DNA of 64,000 bases from Eledone cirrhosa (taxonomy: Eukaryota): positions 47,430,001-47,494,000 of the forward strand of contig OZ024747.1 of NCBI GenBank assembly GCA_964016885.1, written 5' to 3'. Made by a program: the position numbers and the translations under genes. Below are positions 2,830 to 48,262 of the stretch, piece after piece. The notes under the pieces are model-generated. The model was given only the letters and a program-made list of their open reading frames with translations. It searched no databases and was not told where the DNA came from. Position 1 is the stretch's first letter, and every line of letters begins with the position of its first letter.

Positions 2830-3268
2830 GTAGTCGTGTGTGTGCGTGGATGTGCGAACAACCAAACACAGCAGTAATTTATTGAAGTTGTTATCTTCCT
2901 GTTTCTTCTACAACAACTACAACGGTACGTGATGGGGTCCACCCACAGCCCCGGCGAACAGAATGGAGAAGGCGTTTCCCCGGCGGACGGCAAGGGAGAC
3001 GCGCTGGAAAAGCCACTCCAACTCGCGGGGCTCACACCTGCGGCTGGCCAACTCAGCGCCTATGGTGGTGAGTAAGGAGGTAGCCCTGGAGCCGAGGACA
3101 CCAGAAGTCTCCACTGCCAGGGGAAGACCACAAACCTGTCGGAGAGCGACCGGTATTTGAGGAGTTTAGCCCCCTCAGCCCGACGTGCAGTAGAACCTGG
3201 GTCAGTCGCAGACTGCACCAGGTTACGGCTGCAGAAAGTGTCGGTGCAAGTGGCATCCCAGACGAGTG
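2830..3268 (-). mobile_element. CRE-clade non-LTR retrotransposon 3' fragment (RLE endonuclease C-terminus and 3' UTR) abutting (CA)n
   Basis: Minus-strand translation with one frameshift: LVWDATCTDTF...AEGAKLLKY...F(P)AVETSGVLG...FQRVSLAVRRGNAFSIL, the typical CRE RLE tail. AATAAA is followed by a (CA)n tract. Confidence 0.75.
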
Positions 3269-6200
3269 GTTATACTGCTGGTGAAATATACTGCTGGTGA
3301 CTGAATTATCGTTTGGGAGCGAATGTATATGTTCAGAAAATCTGTGTTGAACTGAATGTGTTAACATTTTGTGTATATGTTTATGAGAACAAATGTGGTG
3401 ACATGGAAGTATCTCTGTGCGTGTGTGTGTGTGTGTATTGTGTGTGTAAGATATGTGTATTGTGTGTGTGTAAGACATGTGTATCAATGTAGACGTAAAT
3501 GCCTCTGTGTGTCTGAATATGTGTGCAAATATCTAAGCGCTCGAGTGTGTGTGTGTGTGAATGTATGTTTGAGTGTGTGTGTGTTTGTGTGTGAGTATGC
3601 GTGTTTGTATCAAACCAAATATGTGAAGATGCATATAGCTGTGTGTGGAGAGGCATCGTTTGTATCTATAAATTTGTAAATGCATGTGTATATGCGAATG
3701 TGTGTTGAAATATGTTTGAGCGTGCGTGCGTGCGTGCAAATATGCATATGTATGTTTCTGTGCGTACGTATGTACATGAATGTATGCATGTGTGCGTGTG
3801 CCTGTGTGAAAGAAAATACGTGTGTATCCCTCTGTGTATATACATATGTTTCTATAAGATATCACATATATATATGTGTGTGTGTGTGTGTGTGAGTGTG
3901 TGTGTGTGTGTGTGTGTGTATGTGTGTGTGTGTGTGTGTGTGTGTGTGTGTGTGTGTGTGTGTGTGTGTGTGTGTGTGTGTATGTATATATATATATACA
4001 CACATATATATATATATTTATATATATATATATATGCATCTACTTGCAAATGTGTATGTGCTTACGTGTTTCTGTATGTGTGCGCGTGTATACGCATATA
4101 TGTGTGTGTGTGAGCACGTTTGTATTTGTGTGTGTGTGTGTTGTGTGTTGTGTTTGTGAACGTGTGTCTGGTATGTGTGTGTAGAAGCGTGTATGTATGT
4201 GAGAGTTGAAAAAGTACGTAAGACTCGTACATTGGTAGGTGTTGGTTAGAAGAAGGTTTGGTGATGACTTCCCGACTACGTCAAATAAGTTCCGTTAATA
4301 AAGTATGGTTATTTGTTGTAAATAGTTGTGTACTACTTCAAGAGTTTGTCCCTGTCTCTCGCCTTCATTTCCTCATCTCCTACCACCCCCACCACCCCAC
4401 CACCCCCACAATTGGTAATTATTCATTTCTAGTTGATTACTGTACCCATCACTCATGCTCTACATACCAATCAACTTCACCACAACTCCAACCAAACAAA
4501 CAAACACAATCCACAAACTACAATTACCATACATACATATTTAAGTGTGTGTATATATATATATATATATATATATATATATATATATATATATATATAT
4601 ATATATATATATATATATATACACACACATATACATAGATATATGTGTATATATATATATTTATACAGATATACATATATACATAAATGTATGTATGCAT
4701 GTGTTTGTGTGTGTTTTGTGTGTGCTGTATATATATATATATATACATACATATATATATATACATATATATATATATACATATATATACAGCACACACA
4801 AAACACATGCATACATACATGCATACATACATACATGCATGCATATATACATACATAACTACATACATACATACATACATACATGCATACATGCATGCAT
4901 ACATACATACATACATACATACATACATACATACATACATACATACATACATACATACATACATACATACATACATACATACATACATACATACATACAT
5001 ACATACATACATACATACGCTTAAGTCCATGTATTGAAGTGTAAGTAAAGTATTGCTGGTTCAAAGCCGGCGATTTGCATTATATGTGAGGCTTTCTCAT
5101 TCATTTGATGATAATTAAGAATTACGAATGAATTATTGTAATCACTAAAGAGAAGATTTTTGTTCTAGAAAAGCCCACCAAATAAAACTAAAGTATATAA
5201 ACAACGATGCACTGAATCAACCACAATAATATTTATAAAGCAAACTTTACGTGTTGTATCTAAGACGAAACCTAATGATTTTGATAAACGTAAATATATA
5301 TTTATGAGAGTTTTGATCTCTGATGGAGTCGAAACTGCAAGTTTTCACTGTTTCACTGCTGAGATGAAAAGTTTGTAAGTCGTCATCTCTACTTTGCTGT
5401 TTGTTGTAGTTTAACCCTTTAGCATTTATATTATTCTATATTTACTATTGTATTTTCATGATAAATACTTTATCTCACATAATATTGAATCTATGAGATT
5501 TTTATATGATTTATTTTGAGAATACCTTAACATAAGTATGAGCAGTCGGTTATGGCTGGTTTGGCTTGAAAGAGGTGAGAGAATTTTGGACGGATACAGC
5601 CGGTTTAAATGCTAAAGGATTAAGCCTAGTTTTCAGTAATGACATTTGGGTTTGTTTTGTTTTCTTCTTTATCGCTTAGACAAGAACTAGGACGGTATTT
5701 ATCACCTTTTTCTAATATCTGCGAGATTTGTGGTAAGTAAGGAGTAAGGGAGGAAGGAAGGTATCAAACCAGAAACCTATCTTCCAGCTGAGGCGACTCC
5801 GCTAAATGGACCTAAGGTCCAGGTAATAGTAAACCAGATGACAGATCAAGTTTACCACCAAAGCTTCAACAGATATATGACCAGAGAATATACCGTCCCA
5901 TCTAATTTTTTTCGCGTATAACGTATCTAAGACTAGTTTGTCCAATGTGACTTTAGAAAAACACTTGGGTGGAATTTGAAAAAGATTTGGCAGTTATTTC
6001 TAGCAGGTCATGATCGCAAAATTAAGAGTTCGATTCCCAGTGGTGCGTTGTGTCCTTAAGCAAGATATTTTATGTTGTTCCAGTTTACTCAGCTGAGAAA
6101 CATTATATGTTCCCGTAATTCAAAAGGTTGTCCTTTACTCCGGCTCTTTTAAATACTATAGTCTTTTAAAGTTACACACTAATATATAAAAATGTGTGTG

Positions 6201-6269
6201 TGTATGTGTGTGTGTTTATGTGTGAGTGTGTATGTAAGTACGTAAGTGTGTGTGAGAGTTTGTATATAT

Positions 6270-6466
6270 GATCTCATTGGGCCTTCGTCAGTTAAGATGA
6301 CAAGTGTTTCAGTGTAATTGACCGTGAGAGAGTATGTGACGGAGAAGCACCTCATTCTTGCCAAGAGAATAAACAACAGCAATGTGAAATAACGTTTCGT
6401 GCCCCGGGAATCGAACTCGCGATTTTACGATCATGAGTCGAACACCATCAGCAATAAGCCACACGC
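6270..6466 (-). mobile_element. tRNA-derived SINE
   Basis: Minus-strand head GCGTGTGGCTTATTG...GAGTTCGATTCCCGG (A/B-box-like). Confidence 0.55.
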
Positions 6467-6715
6467 TTTTGCAAACAAACAAACACGCACACAAGCATAC
6501 AAGCATACACAATCAAACACGTACAAACACATGCACACACATACACACATATATATATACATATATATACCCATATATATACACACATATATATACATAT
6601 ATATACACACACACATACGCTTGTGTATGTATATCTACAAATAGATTTTACGAAATCCCACTACCACTACATATATGTGTGTGGGGGGGAGGAGGGTATG
6701 TGTATGTATATATAA

Positions 6716-46336: not shown

Positions 46337-46784
46337 CAAAAAAAAAAAAAAAAAAAAAAAAAAAATTACTTATTGACACTTATACGTACGACATACACAC
46401 ACACGCATACATATGCGTGCACACAGCAACACTCACACACACAACAAACACACACACACGCTACTCTACTCACTTACACGCACACACACACATATATATA
46501 TATATATTACCGTCATTACTGATACAAGATTACCAGATTATGTCAACTGTTGACTTTCAAGAGTTTGTATAGTTGAAGCCGATCGTATTACAGTCCAGTA
46601 TTACTATAATTGCTTTACAGCATAGAGTTATGGCTCTCCACGGAGTCAACAAAAGAGAGTACCAGTGATGCGCTGGCCAGTCGCTGGATCCGTGCCAAAA
46701 GCAGAAAAATTATTATTAAATACATACATACATACATACATACATACATACATACATACATACATACATACATACATACATACA

Positions 46785-47610
46785 ATTTACAGAGAAAGTT
46801 GTGCATGGGTACTTGAGACGAAAACCACAAACCATAGAGGGGATAAATCATTCAAAAAGCTTGGCATGAAGTTCCGACAAGTTTTTTGACATCCCACCTT
46901 GAAAGATATCTCTATGCAATACAGGAACAAGAAATCCCTACCAAATATCTGCTACACAAAAGAGGAGGGCCATCAGTTGACAATAAATGTAGGCTTTGTA
47001 AAACAAAGATCAAAGTTATTAGCCACATTGTTGCCAACTGCGAAAGAATGTCGTCTCGCTACTACCTTCCTATGAGAAACGATGTGATAGCTAGAACTAT
47101 CTGGAACACACTTAGGAATATGTTGAGATAGGTGGCACTAGAGAATACTGATGGAACCTGAAAATAAAAGCTGCCACCAAATTAAAACAGAACCTGCCAG
47201 ATATTGTTGTGTGGGACCACACATTGAAAACGTACTCTGTTGTGGAGATCAACTGCCCACTTGATGCCAACGTTGTAAGAAAAATACAAGAGAAGGAGGA
47301 CATCTACGAACTCTTGATGAGGAGTTTACAAATCCAGTATCCAAGATATACCTTCAGCTTCATACCCATCATTATTAGAGTTACAGGTTGTATACCAGCC
47401 CGCTTGGACCAAAGTATAACCGAACTTGGATTTGAGGACAAAGAACGCAGCTCCCTAATTCATAGACTACAAATGGCTGTGATATCTGGCACCTTCAAAA
47501 TTTGCAAAACATTCTTGCGATTCAAGCGATGACAATTTCTTTTCTTTTACAACCTTGCCACCAGGAAGGTGGCCGGTCAAAAATGTACTCGAAATTAAGA
47601 GAAAGAGAAA
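46785..47610 (+). pseudogene. R4/Dong family D, decayed 3' fragment in (TACA)n
   Basis: AIQEQEIPTKY, CRLCK..SHIVANC, VVEINCP. The 3' UTR matches 21740-21820. Confidence 0.85.
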
Positions 47611-47651
47611 CATACATACATACATACATACATACATACATACATACATAC

Positions 47652-48262
47652 ATGGTGGTGGCTGCCAACTCGTTTTCGAGTACGGCCACTACTTTATATC
47701 CATGTAGGAGAACCCCTATCGATGCGCTGAACGAGTATGACTTTTTAGTCCAGCCAGCGACTTGAAAACTCCGGTACAAACATTACACTTGTGACAATTA
47801 TTGACACATAGTGCCGGGCCCATGGTACCATGTGACGACAAGTGCAGAGAGATCTCCAGATATAAAGCAATGCCTGTACCGTGAAGCTTTTATAGTGAGC
47901 AAAGGCACTGCACAAAGCCAGTCCCACTCTCTTAACCAAGATTATATTTACCAAAAAGAAGAACAAGTCAACATCATTGGATACCATCAGGGTTGCAGGT
48001 GTTATATCAGAGTTTTCCTTCTCCTAGAATTCTGCCTTGACAAAGGCTAAGGGGTCATCTCTTCCGGTGATTTTGGATGGCCATTGACTCTAAAGAGCTC
48101 CTTTGCCCTTTGATAGGTTTTGTTTTTAGTCCTGCAGGATGTCCAAAGTCACCCTCTCACCAAGAAACCTTGGTGGGGTTGCCAGTTTAGTCGCCAACGA
48201 CCCGACCATGAGACAGGTTGTACTGGGATACATGTTACCAGTAGCACCAACTGGTGACCTGA
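47652..48262 (-). mobile_element. ~610-bp non-autonomous RTE-type element (5' UTR-like body and RTE-like 3' tail) with (TACA)n on both sides
   Basis: Tail GTGGCCGTACTCGAAAACGAGTTGGCAGCC. Body similar to 46060-46245. 5' end shared with 42056-42141. No ORF. Confidence 0.6.

Follow-up and report, generated by a model that had tools for sequence, protein, structure and literature searches.

Microsatellite repeats at the ends of Dong-like and Tx1-like retroelements in an octopod genome

Insertion into microsatellites is a known strategy of retrotransposons (PMC3812793, PMC4494074). Dong-type elements target pre-existing (TAA)n in insects, molluscs and cnidarians (PMC3812793, PMC7998251); among Tx1 elements, Kibi targets (TC)n, Koshi (TTC)n and a crocodilian Tx1 (TTCC/TTTC)n (PMC4494074); and the Penelope-like elements Neptune and Naiad have a (TA)n bias, inverted 5'-truncated copies and pseudo-LTR hammerheads (PMC8557442). 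In O. vulgaris, Dong-R4 outnumbers every other recently active LINE group (1129 insertions) and makes up 92.7 Mb in 51 families, with 56.3 Mb for L1-Tx1 (PMC13282606).

We analysed a window of 64,000 nucleotides from Eledone cirrhosa (contig OZ024747.1, positions 47,430,001 to 47,494,000); positions below are those of the window. Element ends were placed by eye from self-BLAST, open reading frames and sequence, and an array was scored at a junction if it adjoined the element end within 6 nt. The background, measured at 6000 random window positions, was 0.0023 for AAT, 0.0052 for ACAT, 0.0037 for ATGT, 0.0010 for ATCT, 0.0097 for AC and 0.051 for AT.

Dong-like families and their repeats

Four families, A to D, which we take to belong to the R4/Dong clade (the tree rows below are homologues without family names), have RVT_1 and zf-RVT and no Exo_endo_phos in Pfam, the RT-CCHC-restriction-like endonuclease architecture of R4/Dong. 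The CCHC and RPD..D/E..K motifs align in A to C, and the knuckle is cut short in D. Families A and B form one cluster:

12880..12942, + strand: founder array (AAT)21, upstream of the cluster
12943..13520, + strand: 5'-truncated Dong A; a short 5' piece is inverted
13550..16285, + strand: Dong A, 5'-truncated, open RT-CCHC-RLE frame
16322..18367, + strand: Dong B, 5'-truncated
18413..18746, + strand: Dong A 3' fragment

Within this cluster (12943-18746) (AAT)n adjoined 4/4 5' ends and 4/4 3' ends, bearing out the (TAA)n location that a first-pass annotation had given for A and B, and by this target both would belong to Dong sensu stricto. The Dong A copies are 98.5-99.4% alike, and the Dong B protein is 40% identical to that of Dong A. 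A scan of genome contigs found one A/B-like locus (L026), without flanks. The window families resemble Dong of Bombyx mori, DongAg, the snail DongBg and an ostracod Dong in their reverse transcriptase, restriction-like endonuclease and microsatellite insertion, and A and B share the (TAA)n target with R4/Dong of insects, molluscs and cnidarians (PMC3812793, PMC7998251).

Families C and D lie at two loci:

18792..18871, + strand: (ATAC)20 at the Dong C 5' junction
18872..21013, + strand: Dong C, 5'-truncated, frameshifted
21196..21820, + strand: Dong D copy 1, between (ACAT)19 and (ATAC)12
46720..46783, + strand: (ATAC)16 founder array, adjoining Dong D copy 2 at its truncated 5' end
46784..47609, + strand: Dong D copy 2, (ACAT)11 at its 3' end

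Here (ACAT)n adjoined 3/3 5' ends and 3/3 3' ends, the Dong C 3' array being decayed and only three units long; the earlier placement of C and D in (TACA)n is thereby upheld. The two Dong D copies are 85% alike, C and D are 47% identical, and both are 25-30% identical to A/B. A quick tree of homologues splits a 24-row A/B group from a 30-row C/D group (SH-aLRT 100 each), with support of 86 for the position of Dong C within the latter. Since the repeat of C and D is (ACAT)n (3/3) and not (TAA)n, and that of their relatives is (ACAT)n or (ACTT)n, we file them as Dong-like rather than Dong, a lineage separate from A/B. A literature search outside Repbase found no report of a tetranucleotide-targeting Dong lineage. 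WaldoAg and WaldoFs also target ACAY repeats, ACAT among them (PMC3812793); however, Waldo, like Mino with its (AC)n target, is of the R1 clade, and Waldo is an insect APE-type element whereas Dong C/D have a restriction-like endonuclease, so that ACAT targeting by the two would be convergent.

The flanks of C/D relatives were counted in marine metagenomes at 12 of 25 loci, those of C/D type that reach the ORF end; L007, L011, L013 and L016 to L025 (short of the ORF end, A/B-like or decayed) were left out. The 12 loci represent 10 families, which probably come from a small number of hosts, and contigs built from short reads tend to break off at microsatellites. In 8/12 an element end carried an AC(A/T)T array, and in three, all full-length relatives, both sides did: L002 and L005 lie between (ACAT)n arrays whose sense matches that seen in the window, and L004 between (ACTT)n arrays. 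L001 and L003 have an array at the 5' end and lack one in the 570 and 850 nt that follow the stop, L008, L009 and L010 have one at the 3' end, and L006, L012, L014 and L015 (4/12) have none, where contigs may end early. No (TAA)n was found at the ends of the 12. L001 is part of a mixed tandem array, with an L009-like 3' end upstream of its 5' array. The decayed match L024, left uninterpreted, has (TAA)11 about 1.8 kb upstream. A metagenome scan with a single Dong C fragment as query and a scan of viral contigs gave no match.

The best PDB matches of a C/D-lineage protein, by profile and by fold, were R2 proteins. The window copies lack their 5' parts; an N-terminal three-helix module is common to full-length relatives of both Dong lineages. 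In the C/D lineage this N-terminus is predicted to fold into a bundle of three helices, and most of its top matches are Myb/SANT/trihelix domains, with Z up to 6.4; these Myb-like Z-scores sit below the level at which a merely common arrangement is excluded. Searches of Pfam and of PDB sequences with this domain gave no Myb match, and Foldseek gave no match at E <= 0.001. By analogy with R2, recognition of the repeat in the Dong-like families would fall to the three-helix Myb-like domain. Known R4/Dong elements have at their N-terminus a Myb/SANT-like domain at the position of this predicted module (PMC3812793, PMC7998251).

Tx1-like elements and (ATCT)n

A second group, which we presume to be of the Tx1 clade (its homologues carry no family names), has two open reading frames, with a CCHC knuckle in ORF1 and APE, RT and a zinc-binding domain in ORF2. 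The APE domain is the established target reader of Tx1L, and would read the repeat here likewise.

26885..30400, - strand: older Tx1-like copy, 5'-truncated, 5' end on (ATCT)19
30479..36267, - strand: full-length Tx1-like element between (ATCT)4 and (ATCT)19
34260-36047, - strand: its open ORF1
30798-34259, - strand: its open ORF2 with APE, RT and zf-RVT
36284..39454, - strand: copy 98% alike, 5'-truncated
39455..39530, unstranded: (AGAT)19 founder array, adjoining the truncated Tx1 5' end
63420..64000 (end at about 63420), - strand: 3' end of another Tx1-like family

In the cluster at 26885-39454, (ATCT)n in the element sense adjoined 3/3 5' ends and 2/3 3' ends, and all three (AGAT)>=4 arrays of the window fall at Tx1 junctions. 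No (ATCT)n array adjoins the 3' end at about 63420, which is a counter-example; the association of Tx1 with (GATA)n first noticed is thus kept for the main family and not extended to the second.

Reads from other samples (sequencing runs with a word share of 0.3 or above) added three new Tx1 truncation points adjoining (GATA)n, among the rows listed. Diverged relatives account for most of these rows, which cover 15 of the 205 joints, 12 of the 93 between-letter rows and 24 of the 2445 loose ends. Among those listed, a truncation at 37613 (78 reads, 1 start) leads into an AGAT repeat and then the 3' end of another copy, and one at 36994 (54 reads) into (TAGA)6; at least three contigs leave Tx1 near 37150 into TAGACATAGATAG. 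At least six X9 loose ends (36285-36423) enter non-GATA sequence, five of them at an A-rich low-complexity stretch, and were counted neither way.

As two-ORF APE-type elements in a microsatellite, the window copies resemble Kibi, Koshi and the crocodilian Tx1 (PMC4494074). Compared by target only, they differ, with (ATCT)n/(GATA)n at 3/3 5' ends in place of the (TC)n or (TTC)n of Kibi and Koshi, or any pyrimidine-only repeat. No report of an ATCT target for Tx1 was found in the literature outside Repbase and the Tx1 target lists of PMC4494074.

RTE-derived, Penelope-like and CRE-like sequences

The following elements are presumed to be of the RTE clade:

42398..45960, - strand: RTE-like element with APE, RT and C2H2 fingers, a counter-example
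41006..41250, - strand: internal RTE-like RT fragment, outside TACA
12448..12686, - strand: short element A, RTE-derived, 5'-truncated, 5' end on the next copy's (ATGT)7 tail
12718..12757, - strand: 40 bp from the 3' end of short element A, (ATGT)7 tail
41324..41609, - strand: short element A, (ATGT)n as tail only
42028..42139, - strand: 5' fragment of short element B on element A's (ATGT)5 tail
42160..46337, - strand: short element A, interrupted by the long RTE
47654..48261, - strand: short element B, an internally deleted RTE, (ATGT)16 at 5' and (ATGT)11 at 3'

The long element at 42398-45960 has a single ORF with Exo_endo_phos and RVT_1, T30 at its 5' end and a short microsatellite tail, an interrupted (TG)n. 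Both it and its derivatives had been assigned to (TACA)n; the coding pieces adjoin TACA in 0/3 cases, and the short derivatives have (ATGT)n at 3/6 5' ends and 4/6 3' ends, so the assignment survives for the derivatives alone, and there in part. They share TACA with Dong C/D on opposite strands. At the nucleotide level, short elements A and B resemble neither the coding RTE nor the Dong copies. The C-terminal C2H2 finger of element B (47722-47844) matches that of the RTE (score 81, against a maximum of 54 in 300 shuffles), and the idea that element B is a Dong D passenger was rejected because of this finger and its opposite strand. Microsatellite 3' tails and internally deleted non-autonomous forms are also known from RTE and bipartite RTE derivatives (PMC2887409, PMC5786205). 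Unlike those, the window derivatives also have 5' ends on (ATGT)n; two of these three 5' arrays are another copy's tail and one has no upstream element. The (ATGT)n is probably at least in part an element tail, with a hint of a partial preference for (ATGT)n.

These derivatives fit a reading in which all the repeats are element-encoded 3' tails, new copies entering earlier tails by base pairing of RNA tail and DNA rather than by protein recognition. RTE tails do create microsatellites (PMC2887409), and most Dong and Tx1 5' arrays double as the preceding element's 3' flank. However, tabulation of flanks against background in the window places repeats at 5' ends too, not only at 3' ends, and the 5' ends of Dong A/B, Dong C/D and Tx1 are mostly random truncation points, so that their 5' repeats cannot be tails. 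No retroelement similarity was found beyond the founder arrays at 46720, 39455 and 48262, full-length L002, L004 and L005 have arrays on both sides, and the literature describes (TAA)n already in place as the target of Dong-type elements (PMC3812793, PMC7998251). We regard the tail reading as unlikely.

Penelope-like ends and related fold-back elements occur in TA-rich DNA:

2058..2474, unstranded: H2 palindromic Penelope-like end, minimal hammerhead cores 2199- and 2283+
8014..8460, unstranded: second H2 copy, cores 8207- and 8306+
7386..7576, + strand: H1 fold-back element, (TA)n both sides, without core
8497..8685, + strand: H1 copy, (TA)n both sides
9127..9827, + strand: TA-rich stretch, hammerhead cores at 9130 and 9724
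11402..11550, + strand: partial H1 copy, (TA)38 on one side
23173..23401, unstranded: palindromic element, hammerhead core 23239-, (TA)n both sides
49016..49175, - strand: H1 copy
50825..51730, unstranded: inverted/tandem Penelope-like ends, three hammerhead cores, (TA)n both sides
51908..52336, + strand: two H1 copies with (TA)9 between

The window holds 13 minimal type I hammerhead cores (mean of 0.03 in 30 shuffles), with zero Rfam matches at the gathering score; together with tandem and inverted ends, inverted copies included, they mark these loci as Penelope-like. ORFs of at least 150 aa in the loci yielded no candidate for the RT with GIY-YIG endonuclease of Penelope-like elements, and only non-coding ends are in the window. 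The H1 family has (TA)>=4 on both sides in 6/8 copies and lacks the catalytic core; eight other palindromic or direct-repeat loci, seven with a core, have (TA)n on both sides in three, on one side in four and on neither in one. The suggestion that hammerhead elements lie in (TA)n agrees with these eight loci, 7/8 of which have (TA)n on at least one side. Location in (TA)n, inverted copies and hammerheads are shared with Neptune and Naiad (PMC8557442); the differences are that the window has non-coding ends only and that its commonest family, H1, is without the core.

2723..2825, unstranded: (TG)n array, 3' flank or tail of a CRE-like remnant
2830..3290, - strand: CRE-like remnant, frameshifted C-terminal restriction-like endonuclease and 3' UTR

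The remnant at 2830..3290, presumably of the CRE clade to which CRE1 and SLACS belong, is a frameshifted C-terminal endonuclease piece only, with 12 homologue matches without names. Its position next to (CA)n was confirmed at the 3' end of this single copy; its 5' end has no adjoining perfect repeat. The fish element Togen, with a restriction-like endonuclease, is (TG)n-specific, and the remnant might sit on (TG)/(CA) likewise (PMC4640811), differing in its repeat at the 3' end only and its presumably CRE-like character.

The remnant and some (TA)n cases could reflect loosely specific insertion followed by preferential survival in microsatellite-rich, low-constraint DNA, an account put forward for Waldo-A/B of Drosophila near CA repeats (PMC3812793), and about 10% of the window is microsatellite. 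Such passive accumulation is nevertheless highly improbable as a general account: the junctions are base-exact and specific to motif and strand, and the commonest window repeats (118 AT and 34 AC arrays) hold no Dong or Tx1 5' ends, whereas all three AGAT arrays hold Tx1.

Probable repeat specificity by lineage

Targeting of pre-existing repeats by the Dong-like and Tx1-like families appears, from sequence, to be well supported, since truncated 5' ends adjoin the repeat and the outside data agree. Multiplying the backgrounds of the four founder junctions, those with no same-lineage tail upstream (12943, 18872, 46784 and 39454), gives about 6e-11, a figure for hand-set ends in a pre-selected window whose junction evidence amounts to only four independent clusters. 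The constant orientation noted earlier within families holds in the window, but is poorly tested there because 15/15 (ACAT)>=4 arrays read ACAT on the + strand and each family is confined to one window strand; for Tx1 and the Dong C/D lineage, data from other samples back it.

The first-pass annotation had proposed a strict partition, in which each clade owns and extends one repeat. Each family seen in a repeat does have a single motif and strand, but the Dong-like group has two motifs (AAT and ACAT), TACA is shared with RTE derivatives, coding RTE pieces and the second Tx1 end fall outside the scheme, CRE is a single copy, and the longest TACA arrays, (TACA)28 and (CATA)30, are orphans that outlength those at junctions. 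One repeat per clade can hardly be right, and we abandon it. The probable explanation is that each family's protein recognises and nicks its own repeat, (AAT)n for A/B, (ACAT)n for C/D and (ATCT)n for Tx1, and primes reverse transcription there, with the (ATGT)n of RTE derivatives mainly a tail; specificity would so go with lineage, not clade, and niches would overlap. Insertion would leave repeat on both sides, recreating the target, so that later copies, including those of other families that share the target, would build up into mixed tandem arrays.

It is tempting to speculate, with considerable doubt, that an ancient Dong-like lineage moved from (TAA)n to tetranucleotides and later exchanged (ACAT)n and (ACTT)n for one another, in each case by way of a few residues in its single Myb-like domain (basic arm RRPNR vs RRNR; third-helix pair NE vs RD vs AD/AG/VG in the TAA lineage), a minimal natural target code, and that octopod RTE derivatives seed (ATGT)n tails which this lineage colonises from the other strand.

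Two apparently unreported targets result, AC(A/T)T for a restriction-like-endonuclease lineage and ATCT for Tx1. R2-group proteins are now in use for site-specific gene insertion, and the natural series TAA, ACAT and ACTT makes the specificity determinant of this group testable by domain comparison. Short-read insertion calling has recovered few Dong sites absent from the reference (PMC9115989); sites of this kind would escape mapping if they lie in microsatellites.

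Repeats at the ends of Dong-like and Tx1-like elements

The window is repeat-dense animal DNA, with 39% GC and approximately 10% microsatellite. Element ends were set by hand from open reading frames, self-BLAST and sequence, and each end was scored for an abutting repeat in the sense of the element. The labels Dong/R4, Tx1, RTE and CRE are provisional, drawn from the domain order tested here together with general resemblance, rather than from tree placement among named references.

2830-3290, - strand: CRE, a single remnant
12943-18746, + strand: Dong A/B, Dong-like retrotransposons
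18872-21820 and 46784-47609, + strand: Dong C/D, Dong-like retrotransposons
26885-39454, - strand: Tx1 cluster, three Tx1-like copies
42398-45960: long RTE

Because most copies are truncated at differing points, and an array at the 5' end cannot be the copy's own tail, the 5' end is the informative one. (AAT)n was present at 4/4 Dong A/B 5' ends, (ACAT)n at 3/3 Dong C/D 5' ends and (ATCT)n, the element-sense form of GATA, at 3/3 in the Tx1 cluster, against random-position backgrounds of 0.0023, 0.0052 and 0.0010, respectively. This bears out the first-pass annotation, which placed Dong A/B in (TAA)n and Dong C/D in (TACA)n. Nesting of the copies within arrays leaves just four founder junctions (12943, 18872, 46784 and 39454) without a preceding tail of the same lineage; their joint background is ~6e-11 by our own arithmetic, with hand-set ends in a pre-selected window. 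No similarity to the retrieved Dong or Tx1 proteins or loci was found past the arrays that begin or lie at 46720, 39455 and 48262. Set beside these junctions, passive accumulation of copies in repeats appears very improbable. One orientation was shared by 15/15 (ACAT)≥4 arrays and 9/10 (AAT)≥4 arrays, in about six independent clusters, with the orphan arrays located at 318 and 4860-5017 among them; with all 15 ACAT arrays alike, orientation is weakly tested within the window.

Protein identity was 47% between Dong C and D, 40% between A and B, and 25-30% between C/D and A/B. At its 5' end (12943-12984), the first Dong A copy carries the inverted sequence of 15774-15815, resembling a twin-priming inversion. 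An identical 40-nt low-complexity AAT/AAC/ATAC string follows both the Dong A tail (18747-18790) and the RTE site (42281-42325). A variant of short element A, which is RTE-derived, at 12718-12942 may be the source of the (TAA)n in which Dong A/B lie.

All three (AGAT)≥4 arrays in the 64 kb are located at Tx1 cluster junctions. The sole named close protein match to the Tx1-like ORF2 came from the octopod Argonauta, at 70% over 20% of the query, which makes an octopod the probable source of the window. The element was present in nine public sequencing runs, and reads of 4 of the 13 listed runs were placed on a permuted full-length Tx1 stretch, where depth declines from the 3' part toward ORF1, as in 5'-truncated LINEs. 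Among the rows listed (15/205 joints, 12/93 between-letter rows, 24/2445 loose ends), new truncations at 36994 (54 reads) and ~37150 (3 contigs) enter the repeat, and one at 37613 enters the repeat and then the 3' end of another copy (78 reads, 1 start); diverged relatives make up most of the listed rows, and X9 contributes six that enter non-GATA sequence and are ambiguous. The listed truncations support (GATA)n targeting and give no frequency. A second Tx1-like 3' end near 63420 (34-50% protein identity) has no GATA repeat, so the proposal that Tx1 lies in (GATA)n stands for the cluster and not for this copy. At 30400 and 39454, the truncation points of an old and a young Tx1-like copy (~73% alike) fall, to within a few bases, at one element position, which adjoins an internal GATA-like stretch; a microhomology-driven truncation hotspot is possible.

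Dong C/D relatives outside the window

An alignment of 38 homologues, matching Dong C at 33-52%, was used for a metagenome scan that yielded 25 loci. Flanks were counted at the 12 C/D-type loci reaching the ORF end, which represent 10 families (L008 is almost identical to L010, and L009 to L015).

AC(A/T)T arrays at element ends of the C/D-type metagenome loci
L002, L005: (ACAT)n flanking both sides, with the sense it has in the window
L004: (ACTT)n flanking both sides
L001, L003: (ACTT)n array at the 5' end
L008, L009, L010: array at the 3' end
L006, L012, L014, L015: no array at element ends

An array was thus present at an element end in 8/12 loci, and at the 5' end in five of the six that have a 5' UTR, while (TAA)n was found at element ends in 0/12. 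L002 and Dong D have a short 3' motif in common, and L001 sits within a mixed tandem array. Downstream of the L008 element (3825-3901), (CTTA)n gives way gradually to (TGAC)n and (GACG)n, forming a compound microsatellite. A Dong A/B-like retrotransposon ORF in L026 (1-2337), whose contig bears a cyanobacterial MAG label, is probably eukaryotic contamination.

A quick maximum likelihood tree (54 rows, SH-aLRT only) split an A/B group from a C/D group, with 100 each, although gathering homologues with A and C as queries biases it toward two groups. Dong D grouped with L002/L005 (95), and Dong C fell among the ACTT families without a resolved position. A full-length C/D-type protein gave a confident predicted fold (pLDDT 84.6) whose best matches were R2 proteins. 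Its N-terminus is a predicted three-helix bundle, common to A-lineage homologues, with top structural matches mostly to Myb/SANT/trihelix domains at Z of at most 6.4; this agrees with the Myb-like domain described for R4/Dong in the available text of PMC7998251. Residues of the basic arm and third helix differ between ACAT (2 loci), ACTT (3 loci) and TAA lineages, a difference confounded with ancestry and host.

RTE derivatives, CRE and Penelope-like ends

RTE and its derivatives had been assigned to (TACA)n, which applies in part to the derivatives: short RTE relatives carry (ATGT)n at 3/6 5' ends and 4/6 3' ends, and short element B, a deleted form of RTE, is flanked by arrays on both sides. 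Of the three coding RTE pieces, none adjoins TACA; at the 5' end of the long RTE there is T30, and its tail is an interrupted (TG)n. For the derivatives, repeats arising as element tails, with RNA-guided re-insertion, are likely the true explanation; extended to all families this is rather unlikely. At 42201-42292, 45961-46031 and 46338-46365, short element A holds the long RTE within its hairpin loop, the RTE being enclosed by stretches of A-run plus (TAA)n that resemble a long target duplication, and a third A28 run borders the element's 5' end at this site.

TACA is common to two groups, read as ACAT by Dong C/D and as ATGT by RTE derivatives, and the array at 47610-47653 is abutted from opposite sides by Dong D and an RTE derivative; the idea that each clade owns its repeat therefore fails. 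CRE adjoins (CA)n as claimed, at the 3' end only of one remnant without a 5' array. What was read as niche partitioning reflects a real pattern whose tidiness was overstated, given the coding RTEs, the second Tx1, CRE and the shared TACA, and strict partition by clade with extension of repeats is hardly to be expected.

PMC8557442 describes Penelope-like elements as biased toward (TA)n and as having hammerheads and inverted copies. Thirteen cores matched a type I minimal hammerhead descriptor, where 30 shuffles gave a mean of 0.03. The claim that hammerhead elements lie in (TA)n was partly upheld: among eight loci of palindromic or direct-repeat structure, seven of which bear a core, (TA)≥4 was on both sides in three, one side in four and neither in one, the least clean of our counts because masked repeats partly guided the setting of these ends and no repeat is commoner than TA (background 0.051). 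One more core, at 22933, was assigned to none of these loci. In the commonest family, the fold-back H1, (TA)n flanks 6/8 copies on both sides, and there is no catalytic core. H1 joins a hammerhead-like motif's 3' half to an inverted copy mirroring each copy's own variants, a fold-back that eliminates the core. Its hairpins (7386, 8497, 49016, 51908, 52151) are ~110 nt, at -89 to -103 kcal/mol (three folded), and near-perfect inside each copy while copies differ by 13-17%, which suggests from sequence that the inverted arm may be newly made at each insertion. A 109-bp direct repeat (10078-10810) and a 215-bp inverted repeat (56986-57911) adjoin (TA)n; their repeat units contain no passing hammerhead core and are probably additional Penelope-like ends.

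At 6708-7131, 107-bp perfect inverted repeats surround a 49-bp core that has (CT)n(AT)n before it and (TA)n(AG)n after it, a MITE-like or fold-back arrangement. From its translation, we take 52500-53350 to be the decayed remains of a mariner-like transposase, bearing short terminal inverted repeats. An abundant, partly tandem SINE-like family (21971, 22595, 25956, 53403, 59458, 60620, 61577-61968, 63031-63409) showed no association with any microsatellite within the window.

Probable repeat-specific insertion and known targets

Taken together, the Dong-like and Tx1-like families quite probably insert by repeat-specific nicking and priming. Junctions, lineage split, outside flanks and domain order form the observed part of this explanation. 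Nicking of the repeat would be followed by target-primed reverse transcription at the nick, and the target repeat would be regenerated on both sides of the insertion, which would in turn yield mixed arrays; in Dong-like lineages the Myb-like domain may be the repeat reader. The portion of PMC4494074 available names the cleavage step as chief determinant of target choice in such elements, and reports TTCC/TTTC targets for crocodilian Tx1.

Microsatellite targeting is an established strategy. Within the text available for each source, targets are TAA for Dong, ACAY for Waldo, AC for Mino, TC for Kibi and TTC for Koshi (PMC3812793), and TG for Togen (PMC4640811); Dong targets pre-existing (TAA)n and RTE tails create repeats (PMC2887409). 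Dong TAA, Penelope-like TA and RTE tails are thus already known. Dong-R4 and Tx1 were counted in O. vulgaris, with no target analysis found in the part of PMC13282606 available. Literature searches, in which some hits were judged by their listing, turned up no tetranucleotide target for R4/Dong-type elements and no GATA target for Tx1, and Repbase entries may already record both. Of most worth are the AC(A/T)T repeats occupied by a Dong-like lineage across animals, and the (ATCT)n occupied by a young Tx1-like family.
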